DNA of 27,347 nt. Origin: Candidatus Thorarchaeota archaeon (lineage in GTDB: Archaea > Asgardarchaeota > Thorarchaeia > Thorarchaeales > Thorarchaeaceae). Every line of letters begins with the position of its first letter. The stretch's first letter is position 1. The notes beneath the pieces were generated by a model. It searched no databases. It was not told the origin of the DNA and worked only from the letters and a program-made list of their open reading frames with translations. Shown one piece after another: positions 10,141-25,705 of the stretch. The position numbers and the translations under genes were made by a program. The stretch lies in assembly GCA_016839445.1 (NCBI GenBank), contig JAEOUG010000097.1, forward strand, positions 1 to 27,347, in the 5' to 3' direction.

Positions 10141-10656
10141 CTATCTTGCCTTTGCCAGCTCCCTGCTCCACTCTTTCAGATCATCCCTGAGCTTGCCAAG
10201 GTCTGTTGGACTGATTGAGTCTACTCTACCGTAGGTCTTCAGAATCCTAGTCCATCTCTGCATCTTCACTACTATTTGCCCTGATGCCCCTCGACTCTCG
10301 AGCATTCCTGCGGCTTCACTTAGCTTCTGCGAGAGATCGCTGGCTATGACACCTTCGCGAATCTGGGTCTCCAGCGTGTCCAGCACTGCTTGGTGTGACG
10401 AGATTGCGCCCTTCTGTGCAAGACCGGACGAGCTAGAAGTAGCAGGTGCAGACTTGATCCCTTGTACCATGCTCATTATGTCGTCGAGCTTCTCTGAATT
10501 CGCATTTGCTATAATAGCGAGATCCGAAGTGGCGTCCTGAACCTCAGTTATCTTCGAGATGACCTCAATCATCCTATTCAACATCTGAGTAAGCCTGTCG
10601 ATTGCACTATTAATCTCTGTGAGTTTCGCCCGTAGGTACGTGTCTTCTTCACTCAT
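10141..10656 (-). CDS. Hypothetical protein: N-terminal coiled coil, Ser-rich linker, helical C-terminal domain
   Basis: Heptad pattern over residues ~8-68 and linker SAPATSSSSG; ATG 10656 with agggga SD preferred over 10722. Confidence 0.85.
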   Translation of the reverse strand: MSEEDTYLRAKLTEINSAIDRLTQMLNRMIEVISKITEVQDATSDLAIIANANSEKLDDIMSMVQGIKSAPATSSSSGLAQKGAISSHQAVLDTLETQIREGVIASDLSQKLSEAAGMLESRGASGQIVVKMQRWTRILKTYGRVDSISPTDLGKLRDDLKEWSRELAKAR

Positions 10657-10724
10657 TGTTATCCCCTTCTGGTGATGGGGCGTCTGCCCTGGCACACAAT
10701 GGTCGAAACCTGTTTGCGACACAG

Positions 10725-17233: not shown

Positions 17234-19009
17234 GTGTCCAAGCGAATGGTGTACAAGTTCTCGAGAAAGACTGCTGCCATACTCCTCTTCACAGTCGCAG
17301 CTGGGCTTGTGCTCTACAACATCGCTCCTCCAGAGATGGACCCCGGCGTCTATCCTGTCGATTTACGAATCACGAGTGCCGGCATCACAGTTGAAACGAG
17401 CTTCAATGTTACTCTCGTAGCAGAGGGCGATCCCATACGGACCACAACGCATCTTGTTGGCTCCGGTACGAATATCACCGTCACAGTACCCGTCCAGGTT
17501 GTCATAGCTCCCGACAATCCAGTGCGTTTTGTACTAGCGGCCACTGGGGCGTCGGTCCACTCCAGTGAGATAATCCTCTTCTTCCGTTCCTCAGAGGGCA
17601 TGAACATAACTCTCCGTCCCACGAGACAGGCTGGACAGACCTTCACTGTCGAGTATCAGCCCCTTGTGAACTCACAGGCCGCAGTCATGATACTGGCAGT
17701 CGTTGCCATACTGTGGTTCTCCGAAGGCATCAGCCTTGTAGCTACATCAATGCTCATACCTATACTCATCGTGCTCAGCGACATTCGCACTCCGAGTCAG
17801 GCCTTGGCTCCGTTCTTTGACCCCGCAGTAGCCCTGATCTTCGGAGGTTTCCTAATTGGACGTGCGCTCACGAAGTACGAGCTGGACAAGCGTCTGGCCT
17901 TGATGATACTCTCACGCAGCAGCGGTTCAGGCTCCACGCTCATCCTGACTGTTATGGGTGTCACGGCTTTCCTCTCGATGTGGATCAGCAATACTGCTTC
18001 TGCAGCTATCATGATACCGATTGCGCTTGCTGTAATCAGTCGGATTCGGAATGAGGAAATCAGAGGCAAGTACGGGAAGGCTCTGGTACTAGGCGTAGCA
18101 TACTCTGCCACTCTTGGAGGAGTGGCCAGCCTTGTTGGTTCTCCTCCAAATCCTCTAGCGGCAACCTACATCAACTCGTTTCTAGGTGTTGAGTTCTCCT
18201 TCATCAGTTGGATTCCGTTCGGGCTTCCTGTTGTACTGATTCTGCTGCCGCTAATCTGGCAGTGGATTCTGTTTCGGTTCAAAATCCCAAAGGAGATTGA
18301 GGAGATCGACCGTCTGCAAGAAATCTCCTTGAAGGAGTATCTGAAACTGGGCCCTATGCCCACGGAGCAGAAGCTTGTGGTTGGCGTTTTCATCAGCGTG
18401 ATAGTGCTGTGGTTCACCGAGCAGCTGCCTGATTTCATCGCCAACGCCATTGGTTGGTCTGGCCACGGAATCTCCAGCTCCATTGTGGCTCTGGTTGGTG
18501 GATTGACCCTCATGATCCTGCGGCTCTTGGATGAGAAGGATGTGTCTTCTGGAATAGGCTGGTCCTCTCTCCTCATTCTAGGGAGCGGCATTGCCCTGGG
18601 TGGTGCAATGATTGACACAGGTCTCTCAGCCTACCTAGCACTTCAGATGAGTGGCCTTGGCATGTTTCCGCCCATGGTCGTGGTCATGGTGGTTGGGCTA
18701 GTGGCGGTACTGGTCACCATGGTGGCGTCCAACACGGGAGCAGCTGTAATCCTTATTCCCATTGCCATTCCTTTGGCCACAGAGCTGGGCATAGACCCGC
18801 TTCTGATTACCATGGTGATTGCTATTGCAGTTTCGATGGACTTCGCATTACCCACGGGCACTCCCCCCTCAACGATTGCCTACAGCACTGGCAAGGTCCA
18901 GATGAGGGAGATGGTCACAACAGGTCTCATCGTGGATCTCATAGCCGTGCTCGTGGTCACCATCGTAGCAGTCCTCCTCTGGGCTCTCCTTGGTCTCGTG
19001 GTTCTCTAG
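17234..19009 (+). CDS. DASS/SLC13-family sodium-coupled anion (di/tricarboxylate or sulfate) symporter with an extra N-terminal extracellular domain
   Basis: LSMWISNTAS, GSPPN, ASNT and LPTGTPP motifs; ggttttata TATA at ~17192. Confidence 0.92.
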   Translation: MSKRMVYKFSRKTAAILLFTVAAGLVLYNIAPPEMDPGVYPVDLRITSAGITVETSFNVTLVAEGDPIRTTTHLVGSGTNITVTVPVQVVIAPDNPVRFVLAATGASVHSSEIILFFRSSEGMNITLRPTRQAGQTFTVEYQPLVNSQAAVMILAVVAILWFSEGISLVATSMLIPILIVLSDIRTPSQALAPFFDPAVALIFGGFLIGRALTKYELDKRLALMILSRSSGSGSTLILTVMGVTAFLSMWISNTASAAIMIPIALAVISRIRNEEIRGKYGKALVLGVAYSATLGGVASLVGSPPNPLAATYINSFLGVEFSFISWIPFGLPVVLILLPLIWQWILFRFKIPKEIEEIDRLQEISLKEYLKLGPMPTEQKLVVGVFISVIVLWFTEQLPDFIANAIGWSGHGISSSIVALVGGLTLMILRLLDEKDVSSGIGWSSLLILGSGIALGGAMIDTGLSAYLALQMSGLGMFPPMVVVMVVGLVAVLVTMVASNTGAAVILIPIAIPLATELGIDPLLITMVIAIAVSMDFALPTGTPPSTIAYSTGKVQMREMVTTGLIVDLIAVLVVTIVAVLLWALLGLVVL

Positions 19010-19031
19010 GATGCGAAACGGCGGGGAGCGC

Positions 19032-19044
19032 AAAGGGTTTAAAT
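19032..19044 (+). promoter_or_regulatory. BRE/TATA promoter
   Basis: aaagggtttaaat about 35 nt upstream of ATG 19079. Confidence 0.65.
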
Positions 19045-19078
19045 CGCAGGCCATACCGACCTCGCGCAGGTCACGAAG

Positions 19079-19843
19079 ATGAGTTGGATTGCCAAGATAA
19101 TCAAACAGACCCCCGATGAGTACTCCCAGGCCAGACTAGTCAAGTACGGGTTGGGCGAACATGTCGGCCCACGTGTGAAGCTGACATTCAGCAAGTCGAG
19201 TATCAAGTTCAAGGCAGACTTGGACATGGAGAAGGCTCTGCTGAGCGCTTATCTCGCAGGTGCGCCCAAAGGGTCTCACAAAGTCAAAGGCAACATCATC
19301 ACCTACGATGACCGTCGGGACGTCTTCTCAGGGCTGACAATGCCCTTGGATTGGAAGCGGTCTGCTGGCAAGTACAAGTCCAATGTAAGTGAGTCCGCTC
19401 CTCTAGAACACATCAGTGAGCTGCTCAAGGTTGCAGACCCTACAACCTTCTATCTTCTGTCCGTGAACCCCTCTTCAGGCGGCACGCCTTGGAAGATTGC
19501 GACAAAGACATCCTTTCCGAAGGGTGCTCCTTCTGGAGGAGAGGAGGAAGCGGACGAGAAGGACCCGAGTTTCAGCAAGGGGGCCTTCGCCAACACTCCT
19601 GAGATAATGGACTTCATGCTTGATACGTTCGTTCCTGACTTCCGGGACAAAGTAGGGCCAAAGACAAAGAAGGTCAATGTCTGGAATACTATTGTCATTG
19701 AGGACATCGAGATTTCGAAAGACCCGAAGCTCAGCATCGCAGACAAGAGACGCCTGGCGAAGAAGCGCGGGAAGCTGCTAAGGACAGTCCAGATTGATGA
19801 CGAGGAGTTCAAGCAGGAGTATTCCTTTACGGTCGGGGACTGA
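19079..19843 (+). CDS. Hypothetical Lys-rich soluble protein
   Basis: 254-aa ORF with its own promoter; basic C-terminal motif KRRLAKKRGKLLR. Confidence 0.85.
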   Translation: MSWIAKIIKQTPDEYSQARLVKYGLGEHVGPRVKLTFSKSSIKFKADLDMEKALLSAYLAGAPKGSHKVKGNIITYDDRRDVFSGLTMPLDWKRSAGKYKSNVSESAPLEHISELLKVADPTTFYLLSVNPSSGGTPWKIATKTSFPKGAPSGGEEEADEKDPSFSKGAFANTPEIMDFMLDTFVPDFRDKVGPKTKKVNVWNTIVIEDIEISKDPKLSIADKRRLAKKRGKLLRTVQIDDEEFKQEYSFTVGD

Positions 19844-19854
19844 AACGTTTAAAT
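19842..19854 (+). promoter_or_regulatory. BRE/TATA promoter of the OST5-like gene
   Basis: gaaacgtttaaat about 37 nt upstream of ATG 19891. Confidence 0.65.
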
Positions 19855-19890
19855 TGGGAACGAAGTGCGAGGCTAGTCGAGGCTGAAAAT

Positions 19891-20091
19891 ATGCTCCAAG
19901 GACTTGAGGCCAGTTACTTCGGTGTGTCAATTCTCTTCCTGTTTCTCGGTCTGTTCTCGATCGCATGGCTAGTCGTGCACATTGAGCATGGCCGACACAT
20001 CTCGAGGTTCCGGGTGGCATCCGCAATCATCCTGGGAGCTCTCTTCCTTGGCTTCGGCATCCACTTCCTCCTTCTCTCAAATGGTGTCTAG
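19891..20091 (+). CDS. ost5: OST5/TMEM258-like oligosaccharyltransferase small subunit (2-TM hairpin)
   Basis: G.F..AW..V in TM1 and LF.GFG..FLLL..GV at the C-terminus match the TMEM258 pattern as recalled. Confidence 0.75.
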   Translation: MLQGLEASYFGVSILFLFLGLFSIAWLVVHIEHGRHISRFRVASAIILGALFLGFGIHFLLLSNGV

Positions 20092-20105
20092 TCTAGGCCC
20101 ATCCA

Positions 20106-20930
20106 CTAATGCGACACTCTCTGAAACCAGTTAACTACGGTCTTCATGGTTACCTCGTAGGCTCTGGGATCCGAAAGAGCATGGTTTGCGCCTTCGACAA
20201 CTACTAGATTCTTCGGCTCTCCGGCACGTTCATACAGTCTCTTGACGCCGCCTAGGCCAATTCCCACATCCTCGCTTCCATGAACTATGAGCAGAGGCCT
20301 TGGAGCAATGTCAGCTATCCTGTCCATCGGATTGTGTGTTTCTGCATCAGTCACCATTCTTTGGAGGGCGTTCTCTCGTATTTCAGGGTCCTCAAGGCCA
20401 TGCAATTGGCCTGGCTCGTTCTCAATTAGATACTCGACATTCGGCCTGATCAGTGGCGACTTCGCGAACCAGAGTGTGTCGTAGACAGGAGCTCGAAGGC
20501 AGACCGCGCGTATCCTCGAGTCCTCAGCAGCGGCACATACTGCGACGGCACCACCATAGCTGGCTCCGTAGACACCTATCCAATTCTCCTTCACAAGCCC
20601 AGATTTCTGGAGGTGCGAAACAGCAGCTTCTGCATCGATAATCTCTCCTGAAAGCGAGAATGTCCCCTCACTCTCTCTGAACCCTCTGAAGTCAAATGTG
20701 AGAACGACGAAGCCCGCCTTGGCCAGAAGAGTCGCTACTCCTCCCGTCTGGTTCCTTCCTCCTGGAAGCCCATGAAACTTGCAGACTCCTGGAAACGGAC
20801 CCTCTGACTTCGGCCTGACGAAGTTGCCCTTGATGAGTTGCTCGTCAGAACGGAATTCAGTAGGGGTCACCAAGATGTCCATACTCATCGTTTCCAACCC
20901 GCTGGATTTGAGACTTCCGACAGGCTTCAT
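20106..20930 (-). CDS. Alpha/beta-fold serine hydrolase
   Basis: HGLPG, FDFRG..ESEG, nucleophile GASYG, HGSED and GANH; true start may be ATG ~20888. Confidence 0.92.
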   Translation of the reverse strand: MKPVGSLKSSGLETMSMDILVTPTEFRSDEQLIKGNFVRPKSEGPFPGVCKFHGLPGGRNQTGGVATLLAKAGFVVLTFDFRGFRESEGTFSLSGEIIDAEAAVSHLQKSGLVKENWIGVYGASYGGAVAVCAAAEDSRIRAVCLRAPVYDTLWFAKSPLIRPNVEYLIENEPGQLHGLEDPEIRENALQRMVTDAETHNPMDRIADIAPRPLLIVHGSEDVGIGLGGVKRLYERAGEPKNLVVVEGANHALSDPRAYEVTMKTVVNWFQRVSH

Positions 20931-21045
20931 GCTTCTGACTGGGTCTCTTTCAGAATCCCCGATGTCCTACGCACGAAATACCGTTATTTAGCAACCGACC
21001 TATCTCCTCGTGCTGTTCTCAGCGGATAGCAGATTTCAGAAGGAA

Positions 21046-22260
21046 ATGAGGCATTCCCACGTGCTAAGAGAGCCGGACATCCAGAAACTGGCAATCGAGA
21101 GCCGCCAAAAGCTTGTGCAGGAATTCGCCGAGACCTACGCCAACCTCAGAGAACGTGTAAAACGCGTCCCTGATGGAGATGCAAGACGAATATCCGAAGA
21201 GCTCTCATGTCCCCTAGAGGTGGCCATGATTGCCTACTTGATTGAGATGGATGGAATAAAGAAAGCACGCGAGGCTGTTGGTCTCATGGCGGAGGAACTC
21301 AACCGCCGTTCTGAGGTCGGCGAGGCTGTTCCCAATCTTCCAGGTAATGTAATGGAGTTCGCTCTTGTAGAAGGAAGATGGATTTCTCATGTCAACGGCC
21401 CCTTCCTTCGATCCGTTGAGCTTCAGGTCCGGGGTCTTGCCAATGAAGAGGAATCTGTGGGCCAGGGAGAGCTTGAGGTTGAGAAGGCTCTGTCAATTAT
21501 CGCGGCACGCACAAAGATCGCAGAGACCCTCATAGCCCCGGCCGTACAGGAGTGGCTACATGAGCATGTTGAATCACACAGCTCTAATGTTCTACGAGTC
21601 TTCGGAATGGCCATAACCAAGTGGAATCAAAGCACTCTGAATGGCAAGTTCAAACAGATGCAGAGGAGATGTGTCGCGTTCTTCAGAATGCTCCGCGAGA
21701 TACTGACTACTGCATCGGACTCCTTCACAATTGATGCCTCCATCTCGCGCTTGGACTCACTTATCGGTGAGTTGGAGGGGCCTTTCGACGCGATGTCTGT
21801 TCGGGCAGTCTCACACTTCCTGCTTCACTTGACTCCTCGCCCCACTTCAGTTCGGGGGGACCGTTCACAATTCGTGGATATTGGCATAGGGTCCACTAGG
21901 GGGAACAAAGCGGAGCCAGACCTCTCATCACCCTTTGACTTCCTGGAGCGCGATGTCAAACTTGCAGCTCGGAGGCAGGGAGAGGAGAGGGAGAAGTACC
22001 TTCAGGAGCGGATTGGACGAGTCGTGCGAGTCCTGAAGTATCAGGGCAACACCGTAATCGACTGCGTTGAGAGCTGCATGAAGGAACTCCAAGACAGGTT
22101 TGGCCTTGGAGACATGCCTTTGACCCACATGTTGGAGAGTAACCGCGAGAGAATGATCGAGGCACCGATTGCAGAACGTGACTCACTTGCTGTATCGCTT
22201 ATTCATGATTTCATCCTCATGAAGATCTATGGAGAGGAGGTCTTGACAGATGGCTCCTAA
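21046..22260 (+). CDS. Hypothetical all-alpha-helical protein
   Basis: Long ORF overlapping the next gene by 11 nt; start uncertain (21010, 21046 or 21061). Confidence 0.85.
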   Translation: MRHSHVLREPDIQKLAIESRQKLVQEFAETYANLRERVKRVPDGDARRISEELSCPLEVAMIAYLIEMDGIKKAREAVGLMAEELNRRSEVGEAVPNLPGNVMEFALVEGRWISHVNGPFLRSVELQVRGLANEEESVGQGELEVEKALSIIAARTKIAETLIAPAVQEWLHEHVESHSSNVLRVFGMAITKWNQSTLNGKFKQMQRRCVAFFRMLREILTTASDSFTIDASISRLDSLIGELEGPFDAMSVRAVSHFLLHLTPRPTSVRGDRSQFVDIGIGSTRGNKAEPDLSSPFDFLERDVKLAARRQGEEREKYLQERIGRVVRVLKYQGNTVIDCVESCMKELQDRFGLGDMPLTHMLESNRERMIEAPIAERDSLAVSLIHDFILMKIYGEEVLTDGS

Positions 22261-23020
22261 GCCGATGTTCTGGCTCATTGAGGTTGAGGCGTACGACTAT
22301 AGTGTAGGCTTCATGCACAATGCAGACATCTCTGGGAAGGTTCTGATTGTATCAAGCCAGCTGTGGTCAATAATCAGGGGATCGGAGGTGTTCTCCGTTC
22401 TGATTGGCCCGGGCATCTTCAAGGGACAGGCACAGAAGGGACACATCAAGGTTGATGTCACCGAGTTCATCTCCGCCCTGATATTTGACCCCACGCGGCT
22501 CAGGTGTGATGAACCCCTTCCTCAGGTTGACATCGTGTCCCCCGAGGTCATTGATCCCACGGGTGCCGGGAAGCAGGAGGAGATTGTCACTGTCATCAGG
22601 AACCTCATTATGGAACGTGGGAACATCTTGGCTGGAGATCCTCTTGCCACTGTTAGAAGCGAGGCTGGCGTTCCGCAGACAGCTCACTACGAAGAGGTCT
22701 TCGAGAAGATTAACGTGTCACACGTATCCGGTGTCCAGAGGGCTCGGTTCATTCTCGCAGGCACAAACGGGCCGATGTACCGCGCCTATGTTGAGCACTT
22801 CGAGAAGGGCAAGTTCGACAACTGCCGCAGGACGAAAGTGATGGCGACTCCATTCAGTCGCTTTGCCAGCTTTGTGGACATCGAAGTGATGGCGAACTGG
22901 CAGATTGTTGAGAAGGCCGGGATGGATATGAAGACAGGCATCGAGGCGGTAGGCGAGGAGTACGATAGAACCTTGGACATGCTGCGAAAGGACAAAGAGA
23001 TGTTCATGTTCCCGCCCTGA
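22250..23020 (+). CDS. Hypothetical alpha/beta protein, translationally coupled to the upstream gene
   Basis: ggaggt SD inside the upstream gene; 256-aa ORF. Confidence 0.85.
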   Translation: MAPKPMFWLIEVEAYDYSVGFMHNADISGKVLIVSSQLWSIIRGSEVFSVLIGPGIFKGQAQKGHIKVDVTEFISALIFDPTRLRCDEPLPQVDIVSPEVIDPTGAGKQEEIVTVIRNLIMERGNILAGDPLATVRSEAGVPQTAHYEEVFEKINVSHVSGVQRARFILAGTNGPMYRAYVEHFEKGKFDNCRRTKVMATPFSRFASFVDIEVMANWQIVEKAGMDMKTGIEAVGEEYDRTLDMLRKDKEMFMFPP

Positions 23021-23077
23021 CCAAACCAAAACAGTCTTTGCTTGACCAGCATCCCTTCGACCTCGAGGATACACTAG

Positions 23078-25705
23078 TTGGAAGTCGCCGATGCTGACAT
23101 TCAGAGTCGTCTATCTAAGCCCTACACGCTTGTCCTACGTGACGGTAGACAAGAGCTGACTGCGAGGATGGATGTCTTCTCAGGTGTACTTCGCGATAGG
23201 CAGAGAACGCTCTTCAGCGGGATGGTTGAATTCGGAAGGAAGAGCTCAACCGATCTGCTTGAGGTTCGCAGGTTCTGGTTTGTCCGTTACAACAAGCCTG
23301 TCTACTACCAGCCCAAAGAAGCGCATGAGATTCTGAGAAAGCCAACGAGCATAATCATACCACGGGAGCAGAAGCCCCCATTCGAGTCGGAACTGAAGGA
23401 GTTTCTATCGAGGATTCAGGCGCCTACGCCTAACGTAGTCCCGACCTGTCAACACTGCATGCGCGAAGAGCGCCTCACGGTTCTCTCACGCCGGAATGCG
23501 GTCAAAGTGTCTGCCAAACAGGTATCTTGCCTTTCCTGCGCGCAGGGTGACCTCAAAACGGAGCTGAAGACCCTAGGCATTCATCTGTCAAAAGCCATGA
23601 TGAACCAACTCGAGAGACAGGTTTCCCGGGTCAAGTCTGTACCAAGAATTGTTGACATGATGACACCGGGTTTTGACCCCACGAGCGAACCCGATCTAAC
23701 TCTCGTTGACACAATCTTGGCCGAGACTCCCTCCAAGTCCATGGGCATCTCCAGTCTAGACATACCCGAGGAAATGAAACAGATCCTGAGCAAGGATGGG
23801 CTCTCCACGTTACTTCCGATTCAGAGTCAGGTTGTTGCAGCAGGGCTCTTGAAAGGGGCGAACCTTCTGATAGTAGCTTCAACATCATCTGGGAAGACAC
23901 TACTTGGCGAGCTAGCCGGGGTGCCAAAGGCATTGAACGGCAAGAAGATGATATACATGGCTCCTCTTGTTGCTCTCACAAACGAGAAGTATGAGCTGTT
24001 CAGGAAACGGTACAAGAGCATGGGGCTTCGTGTAGGCATAAAGGTCGGAATGTCGCGACTCGATGTTGGAAGTGAGGGTCGCCCTATTGTGGACACAGAC
24101 ATCAAGAAGGCTGAAATTGTTTGTGCCACCTACGAGGCATTAGATCTAGTGTTCAGATCTGGTTCCATCAGTGACCTCGGCGATGTGGGGACAGTTGTCG
24201 TGGATGAGATTCAGAATCTGGCTGATCCAGAGCGAGGTCCCGAGCTTGATGGCATCATATCCCGGATGAAGCATCACTACCCTCGAGCGCAGTTCCTAGC
24301 ATTGTCTGCCACAGTGGGTTCTCCTGAGGTCTTGGCAGAAGAACTGGGCTTCAAGCTGGTCAGCTTCGAAGGTCGTCCTGTTCCGCTTGAGCGACACCTC
24401 GTTTTTGCCAGGAGTGACGAAGACAAACGCTCAATCATCAGACGTCTGGTGAATACGGAGTTCAAACACGTAAGCAGCATGGGCAACAAAGGTCAATCAA
24501 TCATCTTCACGTATTCGAGGAGAAGGGCTCACAATCTCAGTGACTGGCTTCGTGAGCATCGAGTCTCTGCTGCTGTCTACCATGGAGGACTCTCCTACAA
24601 CAAGAGGAGAGGTGTGGAACGGAGATTCGAGAAGCAGCGGTATGCATGCGTTGTCACCACTGCTGCACTTGGCGCAGGCGTTGACCTACCTGCTTCTCAG
24701 GTCATATTCGAGTCTCTTGCCATGGGAGCGGAGTGGCTATCCACTGCGGAGTTCGAGCAGATGCTTGGCAGAGCTGGTCGCCTTGGCAAACACGATCGTG
24801 GAAGGGTCTACATTCTTGTACAGCCTGAGCGCAAGTATCACAGTGGTCAGGACAAGACTGAGGATCAGATTGCGGTAGACCTTCTGAATGGAATTGTTGA
24901 GGATGTTGAGCCGTTTGCAGACAAGGAGACTAGCGCGGAGCAGATACTAGCAACCATCTGCTCTTCTGGTCTGACAGACCTCAAAGATGTGGCCAGGGCT
25001 TACAAGAAGATGCTCTCCATGTCTGTTCCGCCATCAGACGCGTTGAAGCATCTTGTTCGCACCTACATGGTCCGCGTCAAAGATGGCAAGATTCATCCAA
25101 CGGAGCTAGGCACTGCCACCTCCCTGTCGTTCCTGCCCCCGAGCAAGGGCTTGGAGGTCCTCAAACTGACCGCTTCCTATGATGTTCTGGACATAGCGAT
25201 TCTTCTGGAGCCCTTCGAGAATGTGTATCTCAGCGCCAAGCTTCAGGAAGAGATCAACAGCGCCTTCCGCACGTATATGCCCACCCGGCTCTTCTCTGGA
25301 GTGTTCAGCGAGATAAGCGATCTCACTCGGCCTCATAGTGGCGCAGGAAGACTTCCTCAGTGGGTCTTTGAGGTCTTCGGCAAGTGGACTACGTCCATCT
25401 TCAACTGTGGATGCCGTGAGTATCCGGAGTGTGACCACGGGAAGATTGCCTTGGGGAGGTGGCTAGTGGAGAAGCGGAAGAGCGGGCTGAACCCCTCGGG
25501 ACTGGCCGGGCAGCTACACAATGAGTTTGAGCTTTGGGCCTATCCGGGCGACCTCTTCTCATGGTTGGATTCACTAATCCACAATCTGAAGGCCGTGCAA
25601 CGCATCGCCAACACAGCAGGGAAAACGGACCTGAGCGTAGCCATCGATGAGCAGATAGAGCAGATCGAGAGTCCTCACGGTAATAGTGCTGAAGACACTA
25701 GCTAG
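23078..25705 (+). CDS. Archaea-specific Ski2-like SF2 helicase (COG1202/ASH-Ski2, DUF5814-type C-terminus)
   Basis: Q motif LLPIQ, STSSGKT, VVDEIQ, LSAT, YHGGL, QMLGRAGR; N-terminal CQHC...CLSC; C-terminal CGC..YPECDH and AYPGDLFSWL. Confidence 0.92.
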   Translation: MEVADADIQSRLSKPYTLVLRDGRQELTARMDVFSGVLRDRQRTLFSGMVEFGRKSSTDLLEVRRFWFVRYNKPVYYQPKEAHEILRKPTSIIIPREQKPPFESELKEFLSRIQAPTPNVVPTCQHCMREERLTVLSRRNAVKVSAKQVSCLSCAQGDLKTELKTLGIHLSKAMMNQLERQVSRVKSVPRIVDMMTPGFDPTSEPDLTLVDTILAETPSKSMGISSLDIPEEMKQILSKDGLSTLLPIQSQVVAAGLLKGANLLIVASTSSGKTLLGELAGVPKALNGKKMIYMAPLVALTNEKYELFRKRYKSMGLRVGIKVGMSRLDVGSEGRPIVDTDIKKAEIVCATYEALDLVFRSGSISDLGDVGTVVVDEIQNLADPERGPELDGIISRMKHHYPRAQFLALSATVGSPEVLAEELGFKLVSFEGRPVPLERHLVFARSDEDKRSIIRRLVNTEFKHVSSMGNKGQSIIFTYSRRRAHNLSDWLREHRVSAAVYHGGLSYNKRRGVERRFEKQRYACVVTTAALGAGVDLPASQVIFESLAMGAEWLSTAEFEQMLGRAGRLGKHDRGRVYILVQPERKYHSGQDKTEDQIAVDLLNGIVEDVEPFADKETSAEQILATICSSGLTDLKDVARAYKKMLSMSVPPSDALKHLVRTYMVRVKDGKIHPTELGTATSLSFLPPSKGLEVLKLTASYDVLDIAILLEPFENVYLSAKLQEEINSAFRTYMPTRLFSGVFSEISDLTRPHSGAGRLPQWVFEVFGKWTTSIFNCGCREYPECDHGKIALGRWLVEKRKSGLNPSGLAGQLHNEFELWAYPGDLFSWLDSLIHNLKAVQRIANTAGKTDLSVAIDEQIEQIESPHGNSAEDTS

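Follow-up and report, generated by a model that had tools for sequence, protein, structure and literature searches.

The question raised by this locus is whether a very short open reading frame (ORF) of a Thorarchaeon encodes a membrane subunit of a eukaryote-like oligosaccharyltransferase (OST), and with which proteins such a subunit would work. The window, that is, the whole stretch of DNA analysed here, comprises 27,347 nucleotides (nt) of a Candidatus Thorarchaeota contig (JAEOUG010000097.1, assembly GCA_016839445.1). The ORF lies on its forward strand at 19891..20091, starts with ATG and encodes 66 amino acids (aa) with two transmembrane helices according to the structure model, its assignment being based on the ORF, a Pfam match and a profile match in the Protein Data Bank (PDB). 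The original prediction, made from the letters of the sequence, had read it as a stand-alone archaeal homologue of Ost5/TMEM258, transcribed from its own promoter and belonging to a multi-subunit OST; the protein sequence that it quoted was exactly the one encoded here.

The ORF is a real gene. It was kept open, with conservative substitutions, in 51 related loci (one genome per species scanned), most of whose titles name Thorarchaeota and five Promethearchaeota, the rest being "uncultured archaeon" or "archaeon". A word-indexed search of 5.8 billion proteins yielded, among 52 candidates, 16 relatives at E <= 0.01 that were 60-100% identical to the query; their names were Thorarchaeota or Promethearchaeota, with one "DUF350 domain-containing protein" and two clearly wrong transporter names. 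In an alignment of 16 close relatives (A1), the invariant residues included H30, E32, R35, H36, S38, G54-F55-G56 and H58. A larger alignment of 32 sequences (A2) was built without P0023 (altered C-terminus), P0024 (a 920-aa repeat protein), P0036 (185 aa, unrelated) and the two A1 members with long N-terminal extensions (P0005 and P0015); here G54 was invariant and W26, E32, S38, F55 and G56 were conserved in at least 90% of the sequences. The genome survey with the A2 profile covered 301 sampled genomes, all within the phylum, and matched 256 of them, 84 of the 90 high-quality genomes and 58 of the 70 genera, while six of the 30 families (f11, f17, f20, f23, f26 and f28) gave no match. The f-numbers used throughout denote families of the phylum, f1 and f2 being of Thor type.

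Membership of the Ost5/TMEM258 family was supported by sequence profiles and by structure prediction. The Pfam Ost5 profile (PF05251), which had been named as a check of the homology, was passed narrowly: the match spanned its positions 10-71 (of 73) and reached 28.1 bits (E 2.4e-6), the cut-off being 27.4. When the A2 profile was compared with 177,635 PDB sequences, human TMEM258 (6s7o_C) was the only credible match (E 2e-7, 34.2 bits), six orders of magnitude ahead of the next (E 0.58). Archaeal and human proteins have in common a G in helix 1, a W ending helix 1 and, in helix 2, GFG, then LLL, with a further G close to its end, and the TMEM258 strings given in the original prediction agree with this alignment to the PDB chain. 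AlphaFold2 run on A2 returned a confident hairpin (predicted local distance difference test, pLDDT, 93.6) with helices at residues 2-33 and 39-63, so that the expected two-helix membrane protein was recovered. In the Foldseek search with this model, the TMEM258 chains 6s7o_C and 8b6l_L took ranks 1 and 2 (template modelling score 0.77-0.78, root mean square deviation, rmsd, 2.1-2.2 Å, 27-28% identity). Human TMEM258 (6S7O chain C; also present in 6S7T, 8B6L, 8PN9, 9N9J and 9YGY) is likewise a two-helix hairpin, of 79 against 66 aa, and superposed on the archaeal model over 63 columns with an rmsd of 2.2 Å and 28% identity; it resides in the endoplasmic reticulum (ER) and has been demonstrated in the OST complex, whereas for the archaeal protein the cell membrane is the expected location. 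On the Pfam, PDB profile, model and fold evidence taken together, the 66-aa protein is very probably a true Ost5/TMEM258 homologue.

The loop joining the two helices, H30-I-E-H-G-R-H-I-S-R-F-R41, has one acidic residue (Glu) against three Arg and three His, and no positive charges are present at the termini. As these charges fit the positive-inside rule, the basic loop is most likely cytoplasmic and both termini most likely lie outside the cell. TMEM258 has both termini in the lumen and its loop in the cytoplasm. Among the 16 close relatives, H30, E32, R35 and H36 of the loop were invariant and H33 nearly so, and the loop was the best-conserved part of the protein in Thor relatives. The human loop reads YEVTSTKYTRDIY, and the archaeal one, HIEHGRHISRF, is two residues shorter; the His-rich loop thus departs from the eukaryotic one as had been proposed. 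HIEHGRH proved to be a feature of the Thor lineage, with YTKYGRE in f9, YMVEKARQ in f12, and HVEYGRE, YIETTRD, FVETSKE and others elsewhere. In most lineages the loop has an aromatic residue or His followed two positions later by an acidic one; the f9 loci have Y-T-K or Y-T-R there instead. In two f22 loci (L103, G218:C46; L104, G262:C1) the Ost5-like hairpin forms the C-terminal part of a frame of 185-186 aa with a T-, N- and E-rich N-terminal part; this may represent a longer, extracellularly extended form.

Further OST genes were sought in the whole genome, an assembly of 2.91 Mb in 190 contigs with 89.8% completeness and 6.45% contamination. The catalytic subunit STT3/AglB (PF02516) was found with 174.7 bits in a 909-aa ORF on contig C183. 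The Pfam Ribophorin_I model had no match in this genome and, of the 41 genomes in the family, recognised just five, always in frames of about 990 aa; a search with a same-genus protein nevertheless identified an Ost1/ribophorin-I-like orthologue of 985 aa and 59% identity on the forward strand of contig C133 (L061:1501-4455), and orthologues occurred in 40 of the 41 genomes. An alignment of 24 such sequences (A3) was drawn from 24 of 30 loci, leaving out three near-duplicates of L066/L068, one of L085, a 1231-aa frame with uncertain start and one truncated copy. Its profile matched PDB entry 8whn, "Ribophorin 1 superfamily protein", with E 3.7e-9 over residues 833-975, the tail of the protein. 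The predicted structure (pLDDT 77.1) consists of a signal-peptide-like helix, a long all-beta ectodomain, a membrane helix at 794-816 and a helical cytoplasmic tail, and its top eight Foldseek matches were human and yeast OST chains (8b6l_O, 8pn9_E, 6s7o_E, 6s7t_E, 8agb_E, 6ezn_A, 7oci_A and 6c26_1; E 6.7e-23 to 9.3e-14), which ranked before generic Ig-like proteins. A sequence probe identified 6s7o_E and 6c26_1 as OST subunit 1 and found the same sequences in the other six entries. Given the orthology to Pfam-positive relatives, the 8whn match of the tail and the eight leading OST folds, an Ost1 homologue is encoded in this genome.

About 430 N-terminal residues of the Ost1-like protein had no counterpart in the matched Ost1 chains and account for its extra length of 250-400 residues relative to the Ost1 frames of other Asgard families. 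This part includes an FKBP domain: residues 145-237 of the A3 profile matched many FKBP domains, and the Pfam FKBP model matched at about 146-230 with E 5.3e-9. In human cells, FKBP11, a separate protein, binds the OST-A translocon according to the accessible part of PMC12804085, and PDB entries 9n9j and 9ygy contain both FKBP11 and TMEM258. On the opposite strand next to the Ost1-like gene lies a gene for a family-4 glycosyltransferase (Alg7/AglH-like). With the Ost5-like gene on contig C62 and the STT3 and Ost1-like genes each on another contig, the OST genes are dispersed, in line with what had been stated for the Ost5-like subunit. The wider claim of a multi-subunit, eukaryote-like OST was not substantiated, only the STT3, Ost1-like and Ost5-like subunits having been found.

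Taken together, these results make it moderately probable that the Thor hairpin of the Ost5/TMEM258 family acts as a small structural OST subunit expressed from its own promoter. In yeast OST, as described in the accessible text of PMC7226087, the two helices of Ost5 are packed against the one membrane helix of Ost1, and Ost5 helix 2 is linked to STT3 helices 1-2 through lipids; Ost5 is non-essential, yet needed for full activity. By analogy with yeast and human OST, the archaeal hairpin would buttress the single membrane helix of the 985-aa Ost1-like protein and would stabilise a subcomplex beside AglB/STT3 in the cell membrane, with its termini facing outward and the basic loop at the cytoplasmic face. 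Its gene would be transcribed from a TATA-type promoter and translated from a short leader with GAGG. Among the mechanisms considered this structural one is the best supported, because the interface residues (the helix-1 G, W26 and G54-F55-G56) are kept and the genome supplies both an Ost1-like protein and STT3. Function as an OST subunit is accordingly graded by analogy as somewhat better than an even prospect, and physical membership in the complex would follow from the same comparison; the presumed role would match that of yeast Ost5, which belongs to subcomplex I with Ost1 (PDB 6EZN, 6C26). A complex prediction that paired the Ost5-like protein (A2) and the 620-835 segment of the Ost1-like protein (A3), run without controls, scored 0.01 against a mark of 0.32 and counts neither for nor against binding, since it gave no answer.

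Genomic context analyses revealed a conserved partner gene of another kind. Directly upstream of the Ost5-like gene, on the same strand at 19079..19843, lies an ORF of 254 aa, here called up254, which has no hydrophobic segment and belongs to no known family. By tblastn, 46 of the 51 Thor loci had up254 ahead of the Ost5-like gene in the same orientation, the remaining ones being cut by contig ends or giving no detectable match. For 12 genomes of other families, 10 kb (less at contig ends) around the Ost5-like gene were compared, and in eight of these loci (L091, L092, L096-L101) a Pfam-less protein of 235-290 aa was a homologue of up254 (phmmer and a one-step profile; E 1e-66 to 2e-86 with the profile). 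A profile of 19 up254 sequences (A4), comprising the window copy, a spread of ten sequences taken from the 46 Thor loci, and the eight others, matched 188 of the 301 phylum genomes. Positions of both genes were listed for 52 non-Thor genomes, and the two were at most 300 nt apart in 45, at 301-1200 nt in four and on different contigs in three, two of which belong to f19. The 45 close pairs were head-to-head in 33 cases, all in f9 and f24, and in tandem with up254 first in 12 (f2, f12 and f30). In one f9 genome (G300, contigs C128 and C151) each gene was present in two copies and both pairs were head-to-head, 235 and 261 nt apart. In f13, f15 and f19 both genes were present but not adjacent. 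The A4 profile detected no up254 in f5 (0/28), f22 (0/21), f27 (0/11), f14 (0/11) or f16 (0/5), families in which the Ost5-like gene was found in 20/28, 20/21, 10/11, 3/11 and 4/5 genomes, respectively. These genomes of one family are kin, so that the evidence for the pair amounts to about six lineages and two arrangements. Since the adjacency survives inversion while other neighbours change, the gene order suggests a functional link between up254 and the Ost5-like gene.

The up254 protein itself is best conserved at a T-K-x-x-x-P motif near residue 142 and in a basic stretch around R224-G231. No family was assigned to it by Pfam (window copy and the 19 members) or NCBIfam, the best PDB profile match was a Bacillus hypothetical protein at E 0.051, and two Atlas look-ups gave no usable neighbour. 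Among the 120 listed of 163 database relatives, names were blank or "hypothetical protein" and none carried a Pfam domain. The hairpin loop may bind up254, the helical cytoplasmic tail of the Ost1-like protein, lipid head groups or a metal ion. The loop was also compared between five genomes of families lacking detectable up254 (f5, f16, f22 twice, and f27) and 11 loci of other families; no loop motif tracked the presence of up254, and the idea of the loop as a docking site for up254 was dropped as support.

A number of results weigh against the reading of the hairpin as an OST subunit of the Ost5 family, some touching the identity of the protein and others its role. As to identity, the six-frame genome search placed the Ost5 match at 26.9 bits, below the cut-off, and among 26 relatives scanned singly, 17 matched Ost5 at E <= 0.01, nine did not, and four were above the cut-off. 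The A1 profile placed human TMEM258 (6s7o_C) first in the PDB at E 0.003 only, and neither the A1 nor the A2 profile reached yeast Ost5 in the PDB search. An exhaustive A1 search of 1.84 billion representatives, a library without names, yielded no more than 21 matches at E <= 0.001. With a hairpin this short, the Foldseek E-values of the two TMEM258 chains (0.23 and 0.44) fall short of significance. That the likeness to Ost5 is convergent, the protein being a generic small two-helix membrane protein such as a DUF350-like one, would agree with these E-values and with the Pfam margin of just 0.7 bits; hydrophobic, glycine-rich helices may score with the Ost5 model by chance, as short hydrophobic profiles attract such matches. 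DUF350 (PF03994), a family of bacterial membrane proteins, indeed came second in Pfam (E 1.8e-4, 22.0 bits), and one close homologue bears its name at NCBI. This DUF350 likeness, however, extends over one helical hairpin and does not reach the cut-off of 26; of the 133 model positions, it takes in 10-59. At E <= 0.01, DUF350 matched six of the 32 A2 members against 25 for Ost5, TMEM258 was the sole PDB profile match and took both leading fold ranks, and the family is essentially confined to a phylum that also carries Ost1 homologues; convergence is thus quite improbable. A chance frame that is no gene at all would be compatible with the shortness of the ORF (66 codons) and with the RNA data: six metatranscriptome runs were found, one of which contained 0.06 of the sampled words, and four gave no contig on the Ost5-like gene, a result that concerns contigs and is silent on expression and transcript ends. 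The conservation of the ORF in 51 loci and 256 of 301 genomes, its conserved start context and the confident model already effectively refute this explanation, whose likelihood is negligible.

As to the role, no STT3 or Ost1 gene adjoined the Ost5-like gene in the 51 Thor loci, and none for STT3 or ribophorin was near it in the non-Thor loci (Pfam; 40 of 101 ORFs, 10 of the 12 loci, with L097 and L099 left out of the neighbour scan as repeats of L096 and L098). The conserved neighbour is instead up254, a cytosolic-looking protein of no known family and not an OST gene. Ost2/DAD1, Ost4, Wbp1/OST48 and Swp1/ribophorin II had no match in the genome, which does not establish their absence, given that none of the 14 controls gave a match with these models and that genome completeness is 89.8%. 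The single OST3_OST6 (PF04756) match covered positions 46-104 and turned out to be a soluble 146-aa thioredoxin with CSPC, so that no Ost3/6, which has four membrane helices besides its thioredoxin domain, was assigned; the same model also matches E. coli and other controls. In f26, ribophorin I was found in 3/3 genomes and the Ost5-like gene in 0/3, and the Ost1 and Ost5-like genes are therefore not strictly coupled, while in f17 (both 0/5) and f20 (0/7 and 1/7) both were absent or nearly so. The Ribophorin_I model, which matched 150 of the 301 phylum genomes and only 5 of the 76 Thor-family genomes, is too uneven for a co-occurrence test of Ost1 and Ost5, given that 40 of 41 genomes have the orthologue. 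The restricted subunit set fits the report that subcomplex III occurs only in Heimdallarchaeia (accessible text of Eme et al., 2023, PMC10307638).

These observations leave room for the explanation that up254 is the main partner of the Ost5-family hairpin, which would serve the cytosolic up254 protein as membrane anchor or receptor, acting apart from OST or linking OST to a cytosolic factor. The conservation of the pair in most Thor loci, in other loci and in 45 of 52 non-Thor genomes within 300 nt speaks for it, as do an adjacency that outlasts a change of orientation, the duplicated genes of G300, both of which are paired, and a hairpin loop that is the best-conserved part in Thor relatives. 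Its weight is reduced by the small number of independent lineages and arrangements, by the families in which the genes lie apart (f13, f15 and f19) or up254 is not detectable (f5, f14, f16, f22 and f27), and by a cytoplasmic loop that differs from lineage to lineage where the pair is retained (HIEHGRH in f1, YTKYGRE in f9, YMVEKARQ in f12). Moreover, a protein without recognisable family offers no function to attach, and gene neighbourhood is weak evidence of binding. We consider this explanation unlikely. It is equally tentative that, in f1, f2, f9, f12, f24 and f30, the hairpin and up254 form a two-gene module in which up254 docks on the hairpin and couples OST or the translocon to a cytoplasmic process. 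For such a module, the further notion that the cytoplasmic partner or process has no described eukaryotic counterpart, or was lost before eukaryotes, is likewise doubtful. The structural OST subunit remains the preferred reading of the hairpin. If the pairing did reflect binding, archaeal Ost5 would have a function not predicted by the eukaryotic analogy.

The Ost5-like gene and its interpretation are already known, down to an identical sequence. Ost5 homologues in most Asgard classes were reported by Eme et al. (2023, Nature 618:992, PMC10307638) in the accessible parts of the paper, and the portion of its Table S3 (supplement file 5) at hand contains at least 235 rows of OST5/PF05251, of which row 4344 is identical in sequence to the present ORF and at least 28 carry HIEHGRH, all labelled Thorarchae*. 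Their Asgard Ost5 is the same family detected by the same Pfam route (PF05251), with no difference for the protein itself, and the distribution obtained here with A2 agrees with theirs as far as these parts go. The conserved neighbour gene, the promoter motifs and the Thor-specific loop were not mentioned in the parts of text and supplement available, and these supplement parts contained none of three short up254 motifs. Only two points had no counterpart in the literature, in so far as it was accessible: the conserved up254 pairing and the Ost1-like protein with its FKBP domain. Asgard homologues of non-catalytic OST subunits bear on the origin of the eukaryotic ER glycosylation and translocon machinery, a point already made in 2023, and the up254 pairing and the Thor-specific FKBP-bearing Ost1-like protein provide two concrete handles on the question of an archaeal OST complex.

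The claim of an own promoter found support in a conserved, promoter-like TATA box. The sequence TTTAAAT lies at 19848..19854 (+); it follows the upstream TGA stop codon (19841-19843) by 4 nt and precedes the ATG by 43 nt. A Shine-Dalgarno-like GAGG lies at 19879..19882 (+), 12 nt before the ATG. Motifs were compared in the 31 of the 51 loci in which the match begins at residue 1, the other 20 being left out because their start codon is not fixed, with 1478 random 80-nt windows of the same loci as controls. Exact TTTAAAT occurred 50-57 nt before the ATG in 26 of the 31 loci (27 with one mismatch) against 10/1478 controls, and GAGG 11-14 nt before the ATG in 29 against 123/1478. The remaining spacer sequence varied among relatives, and the spacer is 7-14 nt shorter here. 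By count alone TTTAAAT was not significant in the window (2 against 0.71 expected; two or more in 16 of 100 shuffles); its second copy, at 19038..19044 (+), lies 41 nt before the up254 ATG and is probably the promoter box of that gene. The consensus of the archaeal transcription factor B recognition element (BRE) is RNWAAW. The six bases before the box are GAAACG here and GTGACG in most relatives, fitting it poorly, at 4/6 and 2/6 positions, and they overlap the 3' end of the upstream coding sequence. Of the "clean BRE/TATA" of the original prediction, the TATA-like box stood and the BRE is weaker. Archaeal TATA boxes are centred about 26 nt before the transcription start. With this usual spacing, transcription would start at about 19875-19880 and leave a leader of about 11-16 nt. 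The gene is probably transcribed from its own predicted TATA-type promoter right after the upstream stop codon, and there may also be read-through from up254, since no T-rich terminator fits between its stop codon and the box.

The remaining neighbours of the Ost5-like gene included no OST gene, and a Pfam scan of the 25 ORFs of about 127 aa or more found no STT3 or ribophorin gene in the window, as had been claimed. "Stand-alone" was apt with regard to other OST genes and inapt with regard to the widely conserved pair with up254. The proposed synteny survey across Asgard genomes likewise showed no adjoining OST gene and, in several families, the conserved up254 neighbour. In the non-Thor loci the other neighbours varied (RpoB with TFIIE-alpha, S-adenosylmethionine (AdoMet) synthetase, IF-2B and TFIIB). 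In one f15 genome a gene for a signal peptidase (Peptidase_S26; L095:5557-6162, +) lies about 350 nt from the Ost5-like gene. Downstream of the Ost5-like gene in the window, an alpha/beta-hydrolase gene (Peptidase_S9/DLH-like; 20106-20930, -) is convergent and ends 14 nt after its stop codon; this hydrolase was found at this position in none of the 51 related loci and is thus a local insertion, restricted to the present genome or near relatives. A 182-nt RNA-library contig at 20486-20667, inside the hydrolase gene, was the sole cover in 18800-21300.

The downstream string of the Thor loci consists of a 416-aa ORF (51/51), a 256-aa ORF (49/51) and a DEAD/DUF5814 helicase (49/51), and a Na/sulfate-type symporter was present in 32/51. 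In the window, at 21010-25705 (+), this conserved string comprises the 416-aa ORF, with a weak MutS_III match (E 5e-4), the 256-aa ORF and a DEAD/Helicase_C/DUF5814 helicase, with no function assigned to it. Further upstream, at 10141-10722 (-), a 193-aa ORF weakly resembled the N-terminal domain of syntaxin 6/10/61, at 20.6 bits (E 6.7e-4) and thus below the threshold of 29.4.

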